From a phage, in the sequence record PZ295659.1: a DNA stretch of 64,000 nucleotides, one strand, 5' to 3'. A program made the translations under genes and the position numbers. The notes beneath the pieces are model-generated. The model was given only the letters and a program-made list of their open reading frames with translations. It searched no databases and was not told where the DNA came from. This document shows positions 2 through 58,206 of the stretch, piece by piece (within the stretch, counting starts at the first letter, position 1; each line of letters starts with the position of its first letter).

Positions 2-2497
2 GTTATTGCTCTTGCTTCTCAAGAGCAAGCAAATGTCGATTTAGAAAATGCTCCTGGTAAAGAACTGGCTATTACTCCGGAAACATTAGCAAATCGTACA
101 GCAACTGAAACTCGTCGTGGTATTGCTCGTATTGCAACAACTGCACAAGTTAACCAGAATACCGATTTTGCATTCCAAGACGACTTGATTATTTCTCCTA
201 AGAAATTGAACGAACGTACAGCAACTGAAACCCGTAGAGGTGTTGCTGAAGTTGCAACTCAGGCTGAAACTAATGCTGGAACAGATGACACCACTATTAT
301 TACTCCTAAGAAATTGGATGCCCGTCAAGGTTCTGAAGTTTTATCCGGTATTGTAAAATACACATCTACGACTGGTACTACAGCTGCTACTATTCGCGGT
401 AATGCTGGGACTAACGTTTATAACAAAGCCGTAGATAATTTAACTATTTCTCCAAAGGCTCTTGACCAGTATAAAGCTACCCCTACTCAGCAGGGTGCAG
501 TAATTCTTGCTATTGAAAGTGAAGTTATCGCTGGCGAATCACAAGCCGGTTGGGCTAATGCTGTAGTGACCCCTGAAACTCTGCATAAGAAAACTTCTAC
601 TGATGGACGTATTGGTTTAATTGAAATTGCTACGCAAGCAGAAACTAACACTGGAACTGATTATACTAGAGCAGTAACGCCTAAGACGTTAAATGATAGG
701 AGAGCGACGGAAGGATTATCCGGCATAGCCGAAATTGCTACGCAAGTTGAATTTGATACTGGAACTGACGATACTCGTATCTCGACTCCACTGAAAATTA
801 AAACTCATTTTGATTCTTCTGACCGTACCAGTGTTAATTCTGATTCCGGACTTATTGAAGAAGGAACCTTGTGGAACCATTATACTCTTGATATTTCTAA
901 AGCAAATGAAACACAACGTGGTACACTTCGCGTAGCGACCCAGGCAGAATCTAATGCGGGAACTTTAGATGATGTTCTTATTACTCCTAAAAAGCTTTTA
1001 GGGACTAAGTCCACTGAAACGTCTGAAGGCGTGATTAAGGTTGCTACTCAGGCTGAAACTGTAACAGGAACTTCTGCTAATACTGCTGTATCACCTAAGA
1101 ATTTAAAATGGATTGTTCAATCGGAACCATCCTGGACTGCTACTACGGCAATTCGTGGATTCGTTAAAACTTCATCTGGTTCTATTACATTTGTCGGTGA
1201 CGATACTCAAGGTAATACCCAGGATTTGAATCTTTATGAGAAAAATAGTTATGCTATTTCTCCATATGAATTAAACCGTGTACTTGCTAACTACTTACCG
1301 TTGAAAGCTAAAGCAGCTGATAGTAATTTGTTAGATGGTCTAGATTCTCTTCAGTTCATCCGTAGAGACATCGACCAGACGGTTAATGGTTCTTTAAGTT
1401 TTACTAAACAGACCAACCTGAGTGCTCCTTTAGTATCTACAAGCACTGCTTCTTTTGGTTCCGAAGCATCTGTTACTCGTAGATTAACTCTTAATGACTC
1501 TAGCGGTTCCGAAATAATTTTCACTAAAGGAACCCAATCTCTTAGTAATAAAGAGAATTTCGTTGTTAGAGCATGGGGTAATAGCGCTACAGATGGTGCC
1601 CGTGACACAGTATTTGAAGCGGGTGACGAAACCGGATACCATTTCTATTCTCAGCGCGCTGCTGATAATAGAGTATCATTCAATATTAATGGAACACTTT
1701 ATTCAACAGGTATTGTTTCTACAAATGGATTAAATGTTACAGGTGTTTCTACCTTTACCGGGCCTATTAGTGCTACAGGCGAAATTGTTTCTAGTTCTCC
1801 TATTGCATTCAGAGCTATTAACGGTAACTATGGTGTTATGCTTTATAATGCTGGTAACAGTTCTTATATTGCATTAACTAACTCAGGTGACCAGACCGGG
1901 ACGTTTAATAACTTACGCCCGATCACGATTAACAATGCCACAGGATTAGTTCGTCTTGACAACGGTGTTCAAATCACAAGTGGTGCAACAATAACTACCG
2001 GTGGGTTAACTGTAAATAACAGAATTATTTCTAATGGCGTTAAAACTGCCACTGTTTATACCGATAAACCAACAGCTTCTACTGTAGGTTTTTGGTCTAT
2101 TGACATTAACGATTCTGCTGTATATAGCCAATTCCCTGGATACTGGACGCGTGATAACAAAGGTAACCGTGACCAAGAAATTAAATATCCTGGTACTTTG
2201 ACTCAATTCGGTAATAGCTTAGATTCGCTTTATCAGGATTGGATTTGTTATCCTACAGGTGCAAATGGCGGTAGTATTCGTTATACTCGTACCTGGCAGA
2301 AAAATAAAGATGCTTGGACTTCATTTGCAATGGTATTTGATAGTGGCAACCCACCTTCACCTAGCGATGTCGGTGCTATCCCATCTGATAATGCTGTTAT
2401 TGGAAACCTTACTATTCGAGACTTCTTACAATTAGGAAATGTGAGAATTGTTCCAGACCCGGTTAACAAAACAGTTAAATTTATATGGGTTGAATAA
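2..2497 (+). CDS. 34: Long tail fibre proximal subunit gp34, C-terminal part; frame is open from the window edge so the 5-prime end lies upstream
   Basis: No stop from nt 2 in this frame; degenerate ~35-aa repeats (ATQAE-N-GTDD...ITPKKL); followed by 35-36-37-38-t in T4 order. Confidence 0.8.
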   Translation, partial: VIALASQEQANVDLENAPGKELAITPETLANRTATETRRGIARIATTAQVNQNTDFAFQDDLIISPKKLNERTATETRRGVAEVATQAETNAGTDDTTIITPKKLDARQGSEVLSGIVKYTSTTGTTAATIRGNAGTNVYNKAVDNLTISPKALDQYKATPTQQGAVILAIESEVIAGESQAGWANAVVTPETLHKKTSTDGRIGLIEIATQAETNTGTDYTRAVTPKTLNDRRATEGLSGIAEIATQVEFDTGTDDTRISTPLKIKTHFDSSDRTSVNSDSGLIEEGTLWNHYTLDISKANETQRGTLRVATQAESNAGTLDDVLITPKKLLGTKSTETSEGVIKVATQAETVTGTSANTAVSPKNLKWIVQSEPSWTATTAIRGFVKTSSGSITFVGDDTQGNTQDLNLYEKNSYAISPYELNRVLANYLPLKAKAADSNLLDGLDSLQFIRRDIDQTVNGSLSFTKQTNLSAPLVSTSTASFGSEASVTRRLTLNDSSGSEIIFTKGTQSLSNKENFVVRAWGNSATDGARDTVFEAGDETGYHFYSQRAADNRVSFNINGTLYSTGIVSTNGLNVTGVSTFTGPISATGEIVSSSPIAFRAINGNYGVMLYNAGNSSYIALTNSGDQTGTFNNLRPITINNATGLVRLDNGVQITSGATITTGGLTVNNRIISNGVKTATVYTDKPTASTVGFWSIDINDSAVYSQFPGYWTRDNKGNRDQEIKYPGTLTQFGNSLDSLYQDWICYPTGANGGSIRYTRTWQKNKDAWTSFAMVFDSGNPPSPSDVGAIPSDNAVIGNLTIRDFLQLGNVRIVPDPVNKTVKFIWVE
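100..1090 (+). repeat. Degenerate tandem coding repeats (~105-120 nt units, at least 6 copies) inside gp34
   Basis: Recurring peptide blocks RRGIARIATTAQ / RGVAEVATQAETNAGTDD / IEIATQAETNTGTD / IAEIATQVEFDTGTDD / LRVATQAESNAGT / IKVATQAETVTGT each followed by (I/V)(T/S)PK-L. Confidence 0.7.
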
Positions 2498-13663: not shown

Positions 13664-13684
13664 TTTAATTACCTCAAAAATAAA

Positions 13685-14131
13685 TTAATAACTCTGCAGA
13701 ATGAATTTGAAATTATCTGCCAGAAGACGGTTCATTTCAGTGAGTGTTTGATATTCTGATGTATGATTGCGAGTGAATGCCAGAGCCAATTGTCCTTTAC
13801 CATAACCAGTAGTCAGGGGTTTCATGTTCTTAGCTGCAACAAAGATTACATCATATTCGATATTGTTAGTGCCCATGGTACGGGCTAGTTGCGAACGGCC
13901 TTGACGAATGTGAGAAAGAATTGCATCCAACCCTTGTTTAGAACGTTGACGTCCTACAAAGAATCGTGCTGCTACTTGACGCCAATCAGATGAACCTTTA
14001 ACAAAGAAGTAAAAACCTTCACGAGAACGAAACTCTTTAGAAACTTCAGAACCGTATTCGCCATTACGAACTACTGCAACAACTTCACCGCCAACTGCCA
14101 GAAGGTCTTTACGAGTTAAATATTTGGACAT
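13685..14131 (-). CDS. ndd: Nucleoid disruption protein Ndd
   Basis: 148 aa; [29 protein letters not shown] and [20 protein letters not shown] resemble remembered T4 Ndd; synteny. Confidence 0.7.
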
Positions 14132-14174
14132 GCTAATTTCCTCAATTGATTAATGTTTTGTAATCCATGAGAGC

Positions 14175-14204
14175 ATTATACTCTGCTCTCAAGAGTTTGT
14201 ACAA
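14175..14204 (-). promoter_or_regulatory. Early promoter for ndd
   Basis: Minus-strand TTGTACA-N17-TATAAT, with the -10 inside a 7-bp inverted repeat (gagagca / tgctctc). Confidence 0.55.
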
Positions 14205-14206
14205 TT

Positions 14207-14407
14207 TTATTCGGCCATATCAGAACGTTCAAAAAGCTCTTCAACAGTTAAACATTCGGTGTCATCCTCAATAAAGAATCGGGTCCAACACGTTGGGGCG
14301 ATGCAGTTATGAGTTTGACCAGCTATAGAAGCTACACGAATAAGCTGCTGGCCATTATTCAGGACAAATTTTTCACCAATTTCAACATCTTTAAAAAGCT
14401 TAGCCAT
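14207..14407 (-). CDS. Hypothetical protein
   Basis: 66-aa ORF with SD gagga and its own early promoter upstream. Confidence 0.5.
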   Translation of the reverse strand: MAKLFKDVEIGEKFVLNNGQQLIRVASIAGQTHNCIAPTCWTRFFIEDDTECLTVEELFERSDMAE

Positions 14408-14435
14408 TTTGTATTCCTCATGTTTTGATAGGACT

Positions 14436-14465
14436 ACTATACCATAATCCTACCTTGATGTAAAC
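14436..14465 (-). promoter_or_regulatory. Early promoter (GTTTACA-N17-TATAGT) for ORF 14207..14407
   Basis: Consensus -35/-10 on the minus strand; -10 lies within the inverted repeat aggatta / taatcct. Confidence 0.55.
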
Positions 14466-14657
14466 AATTAAATTACATTAAAATATGTTAAAGCCAACCA
14501 TGTTCCAGTGAACGAACATGCGATGTAAAAACCCGTATCGCAAATTGTTCTTAGTACAATAAGAAGTGCATTTTTCATAAGTACCTCAATACAATTGAAA
14601 ATATTATACAAATCATAGGGATACTAAGCAACCATATTCCGATCCACATTTTAGAGC

Positions 14658-14921: not shown

Positions 14922-14947
14922 GATGTTATCCTCTTTTAGATAGGACT

Positions 14948-14977
14948 ACTATATCATAGTCCTACTTAGTTGTAAAC
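14948..14977 (-). promoter_or_regulatory. Early promoter (GTTTACA-N17-TATAGT) for ORF 14658..14921
   Basis: Consensus elements on the minus strand; -10 embedded in the 8-bp palindrome taggacta / tagtccta. Confidence 0.55.
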
Positions 14978-14989
14978 ACTTTTATGAAA

Positions 14990-15547
14990 TTAAAGATGAA
15001 GATACCACCCGTTGTAGTTGCTCTTGCGGACGATTTTCTTTAGGTCTTCATGGTCTCCCACGAACTTTATAGAATAAGAGAAGACGTCAGGTGAGGTTTC
15101 TTTGACATCTAATATAATAATGCAATCTGCGACTCGATGGTTCAAGAAGGGCCCTATATTGATTCCATTACCACCCGGATAATCACCACTGTATCCTGTG
15201 GTAACCGAAATCCATTTAGAATCTATCTGGTGTGTCTTGACTTCTACACGAATTCCACAATACTTGGGATGGGCTAACACGTCCCATGCATACGTGTACG
15301 GGTCTTCTACGTCTTCAATACCTTTATTAACATATCCGTCTAGCCAATTTGCTACTACATACTCTGCAAAGACCGCAACCTTACAACGTCGAACTACATC
15401 TTCTTTGTTTTGGCCAGGATTTTGGCTCAGGGAATACCGAGCAGTATCAGCGATCTTCACCTTCATTTCACTAGTCAAAAACTCATTCGACAGGATAAAT
15501 GTCGGAAGATTCTTCAGTCTCAACAGTCCCAAGTTCGTCTTTACCAT
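14990..15547 (-). CDS. denB: Hypothetical protein in the position and size range of endonuclease IV (DenB)
   Basis: Start taken at internal ATG 15547 (SD agagg), giving about 185 aa as T4 DenB; assignment by synteny between ndd and rIIB only. Confidence 0.4.
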   Translation of the reverse strand: MVKTNLGLLRLKNLPTFILSNEFLTSEMKVKIADTARYSLSQNPGQNKEDVVRRCKVAVFAEYVVANWLDGYVNKGIEDVEDPYTYAWDVLAHPKYCGIRVEVKTHQIDSKWISVTTGYSGDYPGGNGINIGPFLNHRVADCIIILDVKETSPDVFSYSIKFVGDHEDLKKIVRKSNYNGWYLHL

Positions 15548-23603: not shown

Positions 23604-24128
23604 TCATTTTAGCAAAATAAAATCAACTTGTTCTGCCAATGAACGTCTAAACATTAATTGACAACTTCCGAGGATGAAATCAGGTGCTTCATAGACCGCG
23701 ATGTAGTATCCTTTAGCTTTCAAGAGTTCAACATCCACCTGGTCGTCAAACCATGCATAAACCGCGTCAACACTTTCAAATCCAAAATAGAACCCTTGGG
23801 CCCAATCTTCACTCAATTCAAATGTGTGCCCAATTCTATAGTATCTTAAGATATTTTGTTCAAGGAGTTTATCTTCATTTACTGTAGGACGATTAGGAAC
23901 ATTATAGTTGTCGCCGTGATGGTAGAAGTTACCTGAGATTATTCCATGTTTATCAAGGAACTCCCATGTTTCTTCAGAGTTGTCGGTGCCCGACCAACCG
24001 TATGGCGAACGAGGTTCTTTATTCCAAGAGGTTTCCCAAATTCTGACCGCTTTACCGTCTTCGATAGCAATTCCTGGTAATGATTCACGTTGAGTACAAA
24101 AACTACGTTCTACGCGGTAAACTAACAT
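23604..24128 (-). CDS. Hypothetical protein (start at internal ATG with SD ggaga)
   Basis: About 174 aa after trimming the six-frame ORF 23604..24185. Confidence 0.45.
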   Translation of the reverse strand: MLVYRVERSFCTQRESLPGIAIEDGKAVRIWETSWNKEPRSPYGWSGTDNSEETWEFLDKHGIISGNFYHHGDNYNVPNRPTVNEDKLLEQNILRYYRIGHTFELSEDWAQGFYFGFESVDAVYAWFDDQVDVELLKAKGYYIAVYEAPDFILGSCQLMFRRSLAEQVDFILLK

Positions 24129-24154
24129 ATTATTCTCCTCTGGTTGATATGGGT

Positions 24155-24183
24155 ATAATATCAAAACCAGAGGAGAAGTAAAC
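24155..24183 (-). promoter_or_regulatory. Early promoter (GTTTACT-N16-TATTAT) inside an 11-bp inverted repeat
   Basis: ctcctctggtt...aaccagaggag arms flank the -10 region. Confidence 0.5.
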
Positions 24184-24187
24184 AACT

Positions 24188-24607
24188 TTATGCGAAAGCA
24201 GCTGGGGTATATTTTTTAATTTGGAATTCAGGAACTACCATGAACTGTCCAGCGAAAACGATGTTATAAAGCTTAACACCATCTTCTACCCAACGGTCGC
24301 TAATAAATCCGGCGATTTGCTTAGTTTTCCATGGTGTTCCATCAGTTGCCGCAGCAATAGTGAATTCATGGTCTTTTTCAACAGAAACTGATCTGCATAG
24401 TCCCCATTTGAACGCTTTTTCTTCCGGTTCAATGAATTGGCTTGAGACGTAGCCAATATTACCATTAGCATCACGAACTTTAACTTGGTTACGACCAAAA
24501 ACCGGATCACTCACAGAAAGAACTTCAACCAACTTCCCGGCAACTTTAGAGCGAGAAGCAACAGATACATATACATAATCACCTGTAGAGAGATTTACAA
24601 TATTCAT
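24188..24607 (-). CDS. Hypothetical protein, paralog A of a tandem pair
   Basis: 139 aa; shares FKWGLC...GFISDRWVEDGVKLYNIVFAGQF with the adjacent ORF. Confidence 0.55.
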   Translation of the reverse strand: MNIVNLSTGDYVYVSVASRSKVAGKLVEVLSVSDPVFGRNQVKVRDANGNIGYVSSQFIEPEEKAFKWGLCRSVSVEKDHEFTIAAATDGTPWKTKQIAGFISDRWVEDGVKLYNIVFAGQFMVVPEFQIKKYTPAAFA

Positions 24608-24616
24608 AATAATTCC

Positions 24617-25072
24617 TTAAGCTTTACGAGGAGACACATAGCGAGTGATTTCAGATTCTTTAACAACTCGGAAGTCACCTAAGAATACGATATTGTATAA
24701 CTTTTCACCATCTTCAACCCATTGGTCACTAATGAAGCCACACATAGTATCAGTTTTGCTTGGATAACCGTATTCGTCGATGAAGTCAAATTCTTTATCA
24801 GTCTGGAATTCAACACCTTTACACAAGGCCCATTTGAACTGTACATTAGGTTCAGTAGAAGCAGATGGAGCGCTCACACGAGTTTCCAGGAATTTAGGAC
24901 TTACGTAAGCGTACTGAGTATCCTGACGTCCAAAACTAGGAATGATTCGAACTTTAACTTCTTTAATACGTCCCATGCCATTTGTGCGAAGTCCGACAAC
25001 TTCAACCAGACGACCAGCGGCTTTAGACCGGGATGCAGTTGATACACGCTTAATTTCACCAATAGTAATCAT
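24617..25072 (-). CDS. Hypothetical protein, paralog B of a tandem pair
   Basis: Start at internal ATG 25072 aligning with paralog A; shares FKWALC...GFISDQWVEDGEKLYNIVFLGDF. Confidence 0.55.
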   Translation of the reverse strand: MITIGEIKRVSTASRSKAAGRLVEVVGLRTNGMGRIKEVKVRIIPSFGRQDTQYAYVSPKFLETRVSAPSASTEPNVQFKWALCKGVEFQTDKEFDFIDEYGYPSKTDTMCGFISDQWVEDGEKLYNIVFLGDFRVVKESEITRYVSPRKA

Positions 25073-25137
25073 ATTTTTTCTCTCTTTGTTTAAGTTGAAT
25101 TCATTATACTCCATCCATCCTTGGATGTAAACTGTTT

Positions 25138-34451: not shown

Positions 34452-34480
34452 TTTAACTCCTTAGTTGATTTGATAGGACT

Positions 34481-34510
34481 ACTATACTATAGTCCATCTA
34501 TAATGTAAAC
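34481..34510 (-). promoter_or_regulatory. Early promoter (GTTTACA-N17-TATAGT) for sp
   Basis: Consensus elements; -10 inside the aggactac / atagtcc inverted repeat. Confidence 0.55.
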
Positions 34511-34514
34511 AAGT

Positions 34515-34763
34515 TTATTCTTTTTCGCGAATAATAATTACTTGTTGAGGCTGCTGAGCAGATTTCTTTTCGGCAACGATAGACCAAATTAAAGTTCCAA
34601 TCCAACCAACCATCGTCCAGTTAAAGAGTAAAGATACAAAGAAGATTGCTGTTGTGCTTTTTGTGCCACGAATAAGTGCGATTACCCAAGGCAACATGTA
34701 AATGATGATTGAACCAATACCTGCGATTAAAACCGCTACTGAACTAGCTACGAATAATTCCAT
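34515..34763 (-). CDS. Small inner-membrane protein (two TM segments)
   Basis: 82 aa, hydrophobic throughout. Confidence 0.55.
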   Translation of the reverse strand: MELFVASSVAVLIAGIGSIIIYMLPWVIALIRGTKSTTAIFFVSLLFNWTMVGWIGTLIWSIVAEKKSAQQPQQVIIIREKE

Positions 34764-40570: not shown

Positions 40571-41286
40571 TAGTCAAGGAATCCTTTAACATAATCAAAA
40601 TCACGTTCAAACACATGGGCACTTACCATGGTATGAGTATAATCACCAACTTCTACACCACATTCGTTAGCGATATAATGAAGTAATTTTCCTTGGAGAT
40701 AAAAATCCAACTGCATAACAACAGCACAGTTCTGAGAACGCATATGACAGTGGGTATAAAGCTTACCATCACGAATATAATAAGTCACTGAGTCAGTACA
40801 TGGATATTCAAGTGTTTCGTCCGAATCAAGCAAAGCCTGATCTGAACTTTCTAGAATTTGGAACACAACTCTTCGGGAGTTAGGCTTCTCTTTAAGTTCT
40901 TTTAGAAGAGCTGGTAATTGAGCCGCAATGCGAGGACCGTAGAAAGTGTTGAAGTTTGCAGGCAAAGCGTCTGATTTAGGTTTAGAAATAAATTTAGCGA
41001 CATTAGGATATGCCTTAAATGCTTCTTCTGCATCAGTACCACCAGAAATCATAAACTTCCAGAAGTCTTCGGCATATTCATAAGAGATGCGATTAATACG
41101 TGGATCGGTCATTTTGAATGATGAAGGGGTATCAACAACTACTGTCATAGACCCAATTTCATTACAACGTCCAATACGAGAATCAGTAACGAACTGTGGA
41201 TTTTCTAAAATTTCACGATTAACAGCTTTAAATGCGGATTGAAAATCTGCGGCTTTAATATATTTCATTGTGTTATGTTTTCCCAT
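40570..41286 (-). CDS. 42: dCMP hydroxymethylase (thymidylate synthase family)
   Basis: 238 aa; PCTDSVTYYIRDGKLYTHCHMRSQN aligns with the T4 gp42 active-site region CTNTVQYLIRD; SD gaggt; N-terminus diverged from my recollection of T4. Confidence 0.65.
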   Translation of the reverse strand: MGKHNTMKYIKAADFQSAFKAVNREILENPQFVTDSRIGRCNEIGSMTVVVDTPSSFKMTDPRINRISYEYAEDFWKFMISGGTDAEEAFKAYPNVAKFISKPKSDALPANFNTFYGPRIAAQLPALLKELKEKPNSRRVVFQILESSDQALLDSDETLEYPCTDSVTYYIRDGKLYTHCHMRSQNCAVVMQLDFYLQGKLLHYIANECGVEVGDYTHTMVSAHVFERDFDYVKGFLD

Positions 41287-56682: not shown

Positions 56683-56952
56683 CTATCGGAGCAAACAATA
56701 AGCCTGAAACACTTTTTCCATTAAACGTTTGAACTCATGGATATCGATATAAAGCTCAGTAAGACCGGCATTATAAAGAAAATCTAAAAAGTTCTCATGT
56801 GTTTCATTATAGTCGCCTTCGTTTAATTGAGATACATGAGTTTCCCAAAAACCAACACCTTTAACAAATGGAAAATACGTGACTTTCATGTATTCGTCAA
56901 CATAAAATTCGCCCAGCTTTTCTTCAGTTATACTGATTCGAGTTAATTTCAT
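56683..56952 (-). CDS. Hypothetical protein (55.x region)
   Basis: 89-aa ORF. Confidence 0.45.
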   Translation of the reverse strand: MKLTRISITEEKLGEFYVDEYMKVTYFPFVKGVGFWETHVSQLNEGDYNETHENFLDFLYNAGLTELYIDIHEFKRLMEKVFQAYCLLR

Positions 56953-57176
56953 TCTAGTTCCTTTGCTGCTTCAAGAGCAGCATCCAGCGAATCAAATTGG
57001 TCAACGAAATCAATATTCAACGCATCGTCAACCGTAGCATATAACCACCATTGTTTGAATTCATATTCTAGGATAAATCCAGGACCTTCAATCTGAGGAA
57101 GACCTAGGCTATTTGTACCAACTTCGTAACCAGCTAGACGCAGGTCGTTAATCAAAGTTTCTGTTAATACGCTCAT
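56949..57176 (-). CDS. Hypothetical acidic protein (55.x region)
   Basis: 75-aa ORF with stop/start overlap. Confidence 0.45.
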   Translation of the reverse strand: MSVLTETLINDLRLAGYEVGTNSLGLPQIEGPGFILEYEFKQWWLYATVDDALNIDFVDQFDSLDAALEAAKELE

Positions 57177-57505
57177 TTTACCGCCTTAACAATTTTCAGG
57201 TCAACGAATTTTTTCTTACGTTGATTTTTCATACGACGGATAGTCTTTTCAGAGATTTCATGTTTCTGATAAGCTTTAGATTCAACACCAAATGCAGCAA
57301 CGTCAAATTCAGAAAGAATATATTGTACTAGAATTTCACGAATAGAATTACGTCCAATTTTCTGGTCGTGTTTTTGCATGATTTCATAAAGACGGAATTC
57401 CCACGCGTCAAGAACTTGAGGAGTAACAATATTGCCGGATTCCAGAAGAGCAACAACTTTATCGAAAGCGAAAGAATTAACTACGTTTTTGATTTTAGTA
57501 GACAT
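57173..57505 (-). CDS. Hypothetical protein (55.x region)
   Basis: 110-aa ORF with early promoter upstream. Confidence 0.5.
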   Translation of the reverse strand: MSTKIKNVVNSFAFDKVVALLESGNIVTPQVLDAWEFRLYEIMQKHDQKIGRNSIREILVQYILSEFDVAAFGVESKAYQKHEISEKTIRRMKNQRKKKFVDLKIVKAVK

Positions 57506-57542
57506 ATTATTTTCCTAGGTTATTTTATTATCCAATGAGAGA

Positions 57543-57572
57543 ATTATACTTTGCTCTCAAGAGTTTGTATAC
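57543..57572 (-). promoter_or_regulatory. Early promoter (GTATACA-N17-TATAAT), near-identical copy of the ndd promoter cassette
   Basis: gagaattatactttgctctcaagagtttgtatac vs gagcattatactctgctctcaagagtttgtacaa at 14171..14204. Confidence 0.5.
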
Positions 57573-57811
57573 TATTTTTTAAGCATGAAAAGTAAGTAAT
57601 TTGTATCACGTGGAGTAATATCAACACCCATATCAAAGATGCCTTTATAGATTGGGTATTTGTTTTCGGTTGTATCGAAGCTGAAACTATTTCCATCGCA
57701 TCTAACAGTAATAGCATCTGTTAAAATGTCATACTCAATCCTAACAATTGAATCCCCAATTTTAACGTCGAGGTGTTTTTTGAATTTGATAAAATCTAAT
57801 TCTTGGGCCAT
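57572..57811 (-). CDS. Hypothetical protein
   Basis: 79-aa ORF; 10-bp inverted repeat gataggaaga/tcttcctatc upstream. Confidence 0.45.
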   Translation of the reverse strand: MAQELDFIKFKKHLDVKIGDSIVRIEYDILTDAITVRCDGNSFSFDTTENKYPIYKGIFDMGVDITPRDTNYLLFMLKK

Positions 57812-57874
57812 GATATTTTCCTCGTTTTAAGACGATAGGAAGACATGTTATTATCTTCCTATCGTTGTACATTA

Positions 57875-58075
57875 TTAACCGAACTTTTTAGCGCCTTTCC
57901 AGCCTTCGTACATAACTGCACAAGTCAGTAGTACAGCGTGCTGGCATTCTTTGTATTTGTAAATCCAGAACCAGCGTAAGAAGTCTTCGTCCTCAACGCC
58001 GTTGAGTTTCATATTGGCAAAGAATTCGGCACGTTCTTCACGAAGTTGCCATGACACAATATTTTCAGGATTCAT
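57875..58075 (-). CDS. Hypothetical small protein
   Basis: Start at ATG overlapping the upstream stop (ATGA). Confidence 0.4.
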   Translation of the reverse strand: MNPENIVSWQLREERAEFFANMKLNGVEDEDFLRWFWIYKYKECQHAVLLTCAVMYEGWKGAKKFG

Positions 58076-58206
58076 TTTGTGTTCCACGCCCCGTTTTCGT
58101 CGATGAACTTAATCCAGTCATTTACAGACCATTTAGTTGTATCATCCTTTGGATTAACATTTAAAGTATATAATCCCTGCTTAAAAAGCATTCGTTTGAT
58201 ATTCAT
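58072..58206 (-). CDS. Hypothetical small protein (44 aa)
   Basis: Start at internal ATG with SD gagga. Confidence 0.35.
   Translation of the reverse strand: MNIKRMLFKQGLYTLNVNPKDDTTKWSVNDWIKFIDENGAWNTK

Follow-up and report, generated by a model that had tools for sequence, protein, structure and literature searches.

Probable PeSL-type composite cassettes upstream of two early genes of an RB69-group phage

We detected two near-identical intergenic sequences 43 kb apart in the analysed stretch of phage DNA (64,000 nucleotides in full, below called the window), copy A upstream of the gp55.2 homolog and copy B upstream of ndd. Each copy is quite probably a composite early-gene cassette of the PeSL type, which combines an early promoter, a hairpin around the -10 box and a RegB-type site. 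The window belongs to an RB69-group T-even phage (Mosigvirus), whose best matches, at 97-98%, include vB_EQ1, ST0 and HX01, and its genes are transcribed on the minus strand. The anatomy, the setting and the indel breakpoints of the copies fit the published PeSL concept, supporting the interpretation of the initial annotation, which had suggested co-regulated promoters or sites of promoter-mediated recombination and gene shuffling.

We propose that host sigma-70 RNA polymerase would initiate at the T4-type early promoter of each copy and drive the immediate-early genes for the gp55.2 homolog (copy A) and Ndd (copy B). The first nucleotides of the leader would form a RegB/S1-type site (GGAU plus an A-rich part), so that RegB could clip the transcripts and hasten their decay, as for the T4 motB and 55.2 mRNAs. 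Spacer positions -23..-17 would pair with discriminator positions -6..+1, forming an inverted repeat that covaries and whose loop holds the -10 box. The copies are probably paralogs whose likeness within a genome would be maintained by recombination or gene conversion, and their conserved boxes may double as junctions for insertion, deletion and replacement of the neighbouring small ORFs.

Anatomy of the two copies and promoter function

A 34-bp cassette had been described at 57539..57572 and 14171..14204, with about three differences. Both sequences are present, but in this register they differ at 4 of the 34 positions; the identity (30/34) is not substantially lower than had been read. The best register is shifted by 4 nt (57535..57571 versus 14167..14203) and gives 34/37, with three differences. 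Allowing one 1-nt indel, the likeness extends through TGGAT.A.AAA, about 50 nt in total. A search with the 34-mer (at most 3 mismatches) returned the query alone, while the pair was recovered at 34/37 in the shifted register. The copies are direct repeats with essential replication genes between them and, as had been noted, a minus-strand gene lies directly downstream of both. The features are listed in Table 1.

Table 1. Features of copies A and B and of their neighbourhood in the window
Feature	Position	Strand	Remark
Variable module beside copy A	57570..57864	-	79-aa ORF 57572..57811 (= RB69ORF075c) and its own hairpin leader
Copy A, AT-rich upstream stretch cttaaaaaatag	57572..57583	-	holds TAG stop (57572..57574) of ORF 57572..57811
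Copy A, -35 hexamer TATACA	57566..57571	-	17-bp spacer to TATAAT
Copy A, hairpin 5' arm TGAGAG	57554..57559	-	within promoter spacer, about -23..-18
Copy A, -10 hexamer TATAAT	57543..57548	-	inside hairpin loop 57542..57553
Copy A, hairpin 3' arm CTCTCA	57536..57541	-	discriminator region, -5..+1
Copy A, predicted transcription start (A)	57536	-	predicted from spacing to -10
Copy A, RegB/S1-type motif GGATAATAAAA	57523..57533	-	10/11 to GGAGRAYARAA
Shine-Dalgarno AGGA, N7, ATG	AGGA 57513..57516, ATG 57505	-	of the gp55.2 homolog
gp55.2 homolog CDS, 110 aa	57173..57505	-	75% identical to T4 gp55.2
Copy B, AT-rich upstream stretch gaataaaat	14204..14212	-	holds TAA stop (14207..14209) of ORF 14207..14407
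Copy B, -35 hexamer TGTACA	14198..14203	-	17-bp spacer to TATAAT
Copy B, hairpin 5' arm TGAGAGC	14185..14191	-	
Copy B, -10 hexamer TATAAT	14175..14180	-	within hairpin loop
Copy B, hairpin 3' arm GCTCTCA	14168..14174	-	predicted start, A at 14168
Copy B, RegB/S1-type motif GGATTACAAAA	14156..14166	-	9/11 to consensus, position 7 being C
ndd, nucleoid disruption protein homolog	13685..14131	-	59% identical to T4 Ndd; served by copy B

On the minus strand, copy A reads cttaaaaaaTAG-TATACA-aactctTGAGAGcaaag-TATAAT-tCTCTCA-tt-GGATAATAAAA-taacctAGGAaaataatATG, where the AT-rich stretch cttaaaaaaTAG, with the stop codon of the upstream ORF inside, directly precedes the -35 box. Copy B reads gaaTAAaat-TGTACA-aactctTGAGAGCagag-TATAAT-GCTCTCA-t-GGATTACAAAA-...GAGGaaattagcATG, and the ndd start region has GAGG-N9-ATG (Shine-Dalgarno and start codon). 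The T4 early consensus comprises GTTTAC at -36..-31, an A-rich part at -40..-44 and a TATAAT-like -10 (Nolan 2006, PMC1524935). Both copies have the A-rich upstream stretch and TATAAT, as in T4-type early promoters. Taken with its preceding G, the copy A box (GTATAC) agrees with GTTTAC at 5/6 positions, and TTGTAC of copy B at 4/6.

The RB69 early promoters Pe:42515 and Pe:165022, predicted by HMM with low scores (8.9 and 18.2; Nolan 2006, PMC1524935, Additional file 3), hold the positions orthologous to copies A and B in this reference Mosigvirus. Pe:42515 is the ortholog of copy A upstream of RB69 gp55.2, which we checked by sequence, and Pe:165022 was matched to copy B because the two promoters that follow it lie 261 and 512 bp away, just as in the window. 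The RB69 listing gives HMM coordinates, and the mutual similarity, the hairpin and the RegB motif are not mentioned in the portion of that source available to us (PMC1524935). The T4 motB promoter (TTTACAaactcttGGGACCagagTATAATGGTCCCgtGGAGTATAAAA) is homologous to the window copies, with the same -35, spacer core, loop and GGA-motif position, and a stop at this promoter was seen by primer extension (Durand 2006, PMC1702504). It differs from the window copies in the gene that it precedes, in two compensatory stem pairs and in having GGAG rather than GGAU.

The promoter reading of the initial annotation is thus borne out by the sigma-70/T4-early architecture of both copies, the early prediction for their RB69 orthologs and the promoter-dependent primer-extension stop of the T4 motB homolog; promoter activity and start sites in the window phage itself are predictions from sequence. 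The proposed co-regulation of copies A and B is plausible, as the promoter core and the leader RegB-type site are common to both.

Two tandem motB-like genes also lie on the minus strand of the window, at 24191..24592 (36% identity to T4 MotB) and at 24638..25072 (47%). Their early promoter, TTTACA-17-TATAAT with the -10 at 25108, is unlike the cassette upstream of T4 motB.

The hairpin and the RegB-type site

BLAST with the 55-nt cassette detected 921 places in 561 phage records, with 3-4 copies per genome in Mosigvirus, 2 in Dhakavirus and 1 in Tequatrovirus. Homologous cassettes occur in five genera (Tequatro-, Mosig-, Dhaka-, Gapriver- and Marfavirus). They lie upstream of motB in T4 and its relatives and in Gaprivervirus, of ndd in Mosig- and Gaprivervirus, of 55.2 in Mosig-, Dhaka- and Marfavirus, and of e.6 in Mosigvirus (the third Mosigvirus copy, outside the window) and Yersinia phage fPS-2; other copies precede several ORFans. 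A scan of IMG/VR with the pattern ACAAACTCTTG-N8-GTATAAT, the stem being left unspecified, was combined with selected BLAST hits; 29 distinct members of the family resulted. Ten stemless pattern hits in unrelated contexts were excluded; they have neither the AGAGTATAAT loop nor the GGA motif, so no family members with a broken stem are hidden among them. PHROGs gave no function for the downstream or neighbouring ORFs, and the Rfam E-value search of 56900..58200 returned a single chance snoRNA hit below threshold.

In copies A and B the -10 box is flanked by an inverted repeat, TGAGAG(C)/(G)CTCTCA, of 6-7 bp. The 3' arm ends at +1, so transcripts started at the cassette would be without the hairpin, which would be carried by read-through RNA of the upstream gene alone. 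In this read-through RNA the hairpin would most likely serve as an attenuator and/or as 3'-end protection for the upstream message. The original PeSL proposal, a hairpin that is chiefly a terminator or attenuator insulating each small early gene rather than an RNA-processing or stability element, is possible but somewhat doubtful for this family. One RB49 PeSL stem-loop lowered lacZ expression to an extent similar to that of the rrnB T1 terminator (Arbiol 2010, PMC2839356), the T4-type motB copy was called a rho-independent terminator by an annotation pipeline, and a UUCG hairpin with a U-run stands at the corresponding place within the orthologous T4 55.2 locus. The family stems, however, are just 6-8 bp long with loops of 8-12 nt and no U-tract after them; the tails of the two copies are ttggataataaaa and tggattacaaaa, and a simple terminator scan reports neither copy. 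The missing U-tract and the modest folding energies indicate that the hairpin is not a canonical intrinsic terminator.

For the copy A region the folding energy is -8.8 kcal/mol (z = -0.70, not significant), with a C.U mismatch at the loop-closing pair, and copy B has a marginal z = -1.84. Since these single-sequence z-scores are weak, the structural claim rests on covariation. Around the -10 of 29 promoter-like sites of the window, 6 hairpins with a stem of at least 6 bp were counted versus 2.9 (maximum 8) in shuffled sequence; this enrichment is not significant and no general rule is claimed.

Among the family members the stem sequences vary (GGGACC/GGTCCC, GAGAGC/GCTCTC, GAGAGA/TCTCTC, GGGGTC/GACCCC, GGGAGC/GCTCCC, GGGAGT/ACTCCC, GAGGAC/GTCCTC) while the flanks and the AGAGTATAAT loop are constant, and in RB69 (CGAGAGA/TCTCTCG) a C-G is added at the outer, seventh pair. 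Across 22 distinct sequences 99.4% of the cells are paired, the sole unpaired cell of the alignment being C(57553).T(57542) of copy A, and double changes occur in 4/7 pairs (25 cells). None of 500 shuffles reached the observed value, pairing with slid partners was 36-50%, and RNAalifold independently predicted the same helix.

These data bear on a further alternative, a double-stranded operator at which a dimeric phage or host protein would bind the palindrome over the -10 and repress the copies jointly. Its half-sites, GAGAGC/GCTCTC, would be symmetric around the -10, and the GAGAG stem is present in all three Mosigvirus copies. Against it, the stem changes between genera are compensatory with constant flanks, one Gaprivervirus genome carries three stems (GGGAGC, GGGGTC and GGGGCC, in L006/L022/L040), G.U wobbles (G.T in the DNA; 17/154 cells) preserve the pairing in the sense reading only, and the half-site centres lie 16-17 bp apart, atypical for a dimeric operator. 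The compensatory stems, the sense-only wobbles and the coexisting stems speak for a structure in RNA or in the non-template strand, and we consider the operator very improbable. At the sequence level, the cross-genus covariation shows that selection acts on the stem as a structure of the single sense strand.

The hairpin is followed at a constant distance by the candidate RegB site: GGA(G/U) stands 2-3 nt after the stem in 29/29 distinct family members, with 7-10 of the 11 consensus positions matched and the A-rich tail locus-specific. Piesiniene is said to have reported a RegB site of the GGAU kind in RB69 in 2004. The RegB/S1 target is the 11-mer GGAGRAYARAA, with T4 motB RNA as the model substrate (Durand 2006, PMC1702504). 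The 3' end of the minimal substrate, GGAGUAUAAAA (PMC1702504), lies 2 nt past the stem of the T4 member, the motB promoter. GGAU sites mostly resist RegB in T4: of the 30 intergenic GGAU sites, only two are cut by RegB (orf 55.2 as well as motB.2), and one RB69 GGAU site is also cut (Durand 2006, PMC1702504). The T4 55.2 leader 11-mer, GGAUAAUAAAA, is identical to the copy A motif. The copy B motif, GGAUUACAAAA, has at position 7 a C that is unseen among cleaved T4 RNAs (Durand 2006, PMC1702504). In the fold of copy A the site is unpaired; for copy B the MFE structure places it under a weak AU helix, which is absent from the centroid. The window has 5 strict matches to the motif, 2 in the cassettes and 2 that resemble middle-promoter modules. 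Judging by these motifs, RegB may cleave at both copies.

The T4 loci orthologous to copies A and B (the T4 40785..40860 region and the ndd.1-ndd intergenic region) have no promoter and keep a hairpin, with a UUCG tetraloop and a U-run before 55.2 and GGCCG...CGGCC before ndd, directly followed by (U)UGGAUAAUAAAA or UUGGAGUAGAAAA. A hairpin with (U)UGGA(G/U) plus an A-rich part and no promoter suggests that what is conserved is the combination of hairpin and cleavage site.

Tentatively, the covarying hairpin and the RegB-type site 2-3 nt downstream may be one RNA-processing module, a reading to which we give less than even weight. If so, read-through RNA would be cut by RegB at GG^A(G/U), 4-5 nt past the stem; the message of the upstream small ORF would then keep a 3' hairpin whose tail is too short for 3' exonucleases, while the downstream leader would gain a 5'-OH end marking it for decay. 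The position of the -10 in the loop would keep the hairpin off cassette-started transcripts.

Recombination and likeness of the copies

In two related Mosigvirus phages, indels have one end in common, within the -35 box of copy A. Mosigvirus JM10 is without 57570..57864 (the 79-aa ORF and its leader) and phage EP32a without 57570..57788, with both junctions at 57569/57570 and with TRTACAA or TAT.CAAA microhomology at the far ends. Breakpoints of related phages thus do map to a cassette, which the initial annotation had proposed to check. The 79-aa ORF is specific to Mosigvirus and occurs as two alleles, of 90-100% and about 59% identity. Dhakavirus is arranged like JM10, with the variable module absent, and its nucleotide homology to the window covers exactly 57172..57579, the gene plus the cassette; likewise the Gaprivervirus homology at ndd covers gene plus cassette (13684..14208). 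VR26-type phages carry, upstream at ndd, an inserted second cassette along with a 114-aa ORF.

EP32a (L048, about 2100..2260) has the first 8 codons of the 79-aa ORF joined directly to the -35 box of the 55.2 cassette, and its 3' arm has an extra TC (GCTCTCTCA); it is a natural deletion product with the junction in the cassette.

Over the 37-nt core, paralogs of the same genome agree at 32-34/37 positions (36/37 for one Gaprivervirus pair) and orthologs of different genera at 27-30/37. The paralogous comparisons are copy A versus copy B (33/37 in this comparison), copy B versus the Mosigvirus e.6 copy (34/37) and the Gaprivervirus ndd versus motB cassettes (36/37); the orthologous ones are copy A versus the 55.2 cassettes of Dhakavirus (29/37) and Marfavirus (27/37) and copy B versus the Gaprivervirus ndd cassette (29/37). 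The differences behind this signal of concerted evolution amount to just 3-8 nt in 37, and the pattern agrees with gene conversion across about -36..+1. Were copies A and B of one genome to cross over reciprocally, 43 kb of essential genes would be deleted, a lethal event, so that gene conversion or local exchange with promoter boxes close by is alone plausible as the presumed mechanism. Breakpoints at intergenic promoters could also simply mark where indels are tolerated. The earlier suggestion of recombination and gene shuffling thus has indirect support: breakpoints at the cassette edge and paralogs more alike than orthologs favour it, as in the published PeSL model, and a reciprocal exchange between the two copies is implausible.

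Arbiol 2010 (PMC2839356) speculated that a recombination protein might bind the conserved stem, and the JM10 and EP32a junctions coincide at one position, as might be expected if a dedicated enzyme, whether site-specific recombinase or homing nuclease, acted on the cassettes in place of general homologous recombination. We regard this as highly unlikely, because neither copy is adjoined by a recombinase or nuclease gene, the junctions are ordinary microhomology (TRTACAA boxes; TAT.CAAA), the stem sequences are variable, and T4 recombination acts on short homologies (quoted in Arbiol 2010, PMC2839356).

When the 10 promoter-like sites of the window were aligned in the register of the 37-mers, copies A and B were the top pair (34/37; median pairwise 20/37), and a second match to the 37-mer occurred in 0/100 dinucleotide shuffles, so the repeat exceeds both chance and the shared promoter consensus. 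Convergence of two strong promoters that each match the T4 early consensus, with neither common descent nor extra function, would account for the consensus-like -35 and -10 boxes in both copies, the extended consensus being common to T4-type early promoters, but near-identity extends to the 17-bp spacer and the discriminator, and in five genera the spacer core ACAAACTCTTG is found again together with a covarying stem, which leaves this explanation the least credible of all.

The 79-aa ORF has a hairpin in its own leader. This perfect hairpin of 34 bp, with ACGATAGGAAGA and TCTTCCTATCGT enclosing a 10-nt loop (fold z = -3.8), lies at 57832..57865 (minus strand), upstream of ORF 57572..57811, and is inverted between close relatives. 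In BLAST against phage records the window orientation was found in about 11 records and the flipped one in about 56, including the closest relative vB_EQ1; exact 30-mer scans of IMG/VR with both orientations gave no match. In the flipped hairpin the loop gives TGtTATTAT 17 bp from TATACA, a good extended -10 promoter, while in the window orientation a weaker TTAATA-17-GATAAT remains. The loop-flip may therefore change promoter strength.

Relation to PeSL cassettes and other T4-type elements

PeSL cassettes were described in RB49/phi1 (Arbiol 2010, PMC2839356) and in PST/T4 and nt-1/KVP40 (Comeau 2014, PMC4122927). The window copies have in common with them a repeated intergenic motif, an AT-rich stretch with the upstream stop codon, a sigma-70-like -35/N17/-10, a stem-loop and then a Shine-Dalgarno sequence and ATG at the 3' end, as well as a location in hyperplastic early regions with adjoining indels between close relatives. 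Promoter spacing, AT-rich stretch with stop codon, stem-loop, Shine-Dalgarno/ATG and repetition near indels were all found in copies A and B. The ndd-denB region, the same region as copy B, is a published example of PeSL exchange (ndd.4/ndd.5; Comeau 2014, PMC4122927). In the PeSL work a promoter and a stem-loop were reporter-tested, and mini-circles from recombination between neighbouring PeSLs were detected (PMC2839356).

The T4 leader hairpins (gene e and similar; Uzan and Miller 2010, PMC3014915) likewise have the 5' strand upstream of an internal promoter, so that long read-through RNAs fold and promoter-proximal RNAs are without the 5' arm. Those hairpins sequester the ribosome-binding site and belong to late promoters, whereas here both arms lie upstream of +1 and the Shine-Dalgarno sequence is uninvolved.

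Another site of the window has such a layout. An early-promoter-like site at about 24105..24185 (minus strand, -10 at 24160) carries a 12-bp stem, TCTCCTCTGGTT/AACCAGAGGAGA, that spans the -10 and holds in its 3' arm the Shine-Dalgarno sequence (GAGGAG) of the gene that follows. The ribosome site would be sequestered in read-through RNA and not in promoter-proximal RNA.

Two more dispersed repeats were noticed on the minus strand of the window. The first is a second promoter-hairpin family with the -10 at 14441, 14953 and 34486 (about 14420..14475, 14930..14990 and 34465..34520), which reads GTTTACA-...-GTAGGAyTAT-(TGnTATA)-GTAGTCCTAT, with 29-32/37 between copies and the -10 in or at the loop. 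Its stem fits the AGNA-loop-TCNT type of the PST/T4 PeSLs, and two of its copies, by spacing RB69 Pe:165283 and Pe:165795, flank the small ORFs just upstream of copy B. The second comprises similar modules at about 55094 and about 22269, with a terminator-like UUCG-loop hairpin, a T-run, a MotA-box-like TGCTTTA and a common GGATGATAGAAT; these resemble terminator plus middle-promoter cassettes.

The analysis suggests that dispersed short repeats in the early regions of T-even phages are composite regulatory cassettes (promoter, hairpin and RNase site) and not noise. It joins two separate literatures, on modular PeSL shuffling and on RegB/S1 target sites, and bears on how these phages insulate and time their many small early ORFs, with no new kind of system. 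The cassette type is already known as PeSL, and the window copies are a tidy but ordinary example of it.

The differences from the described PeSLs lie in the stem and in what surrounds it. The window stem is GAGAGC/GCTCTC, compared with G-run/C-run stems in RB49 and AGNA/TCNT stems in PST. In RB49/phi1 the stems are commonest between -35 and -10 or overlapping the -10 (PMC2839356), and the PST/T4 stems lie just upstream of the promoter (PMC4122927), in contrast to the -10 in the loop here. A constant RegB-type motif and cross-genus stem covariation are absent from the PeSL description in the accessible parts of PMC2839356 and PMC4122927. The PeSL papers argued for the stem mainly from its appearance and one reporter test, and covariation adds support at the sequence level. 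This cross-genus covariation, the constancy of the RegB-type motif within the cassette and the paralog-versus-ortholog pattern are what the present analysis adds to the known PeSL picture.
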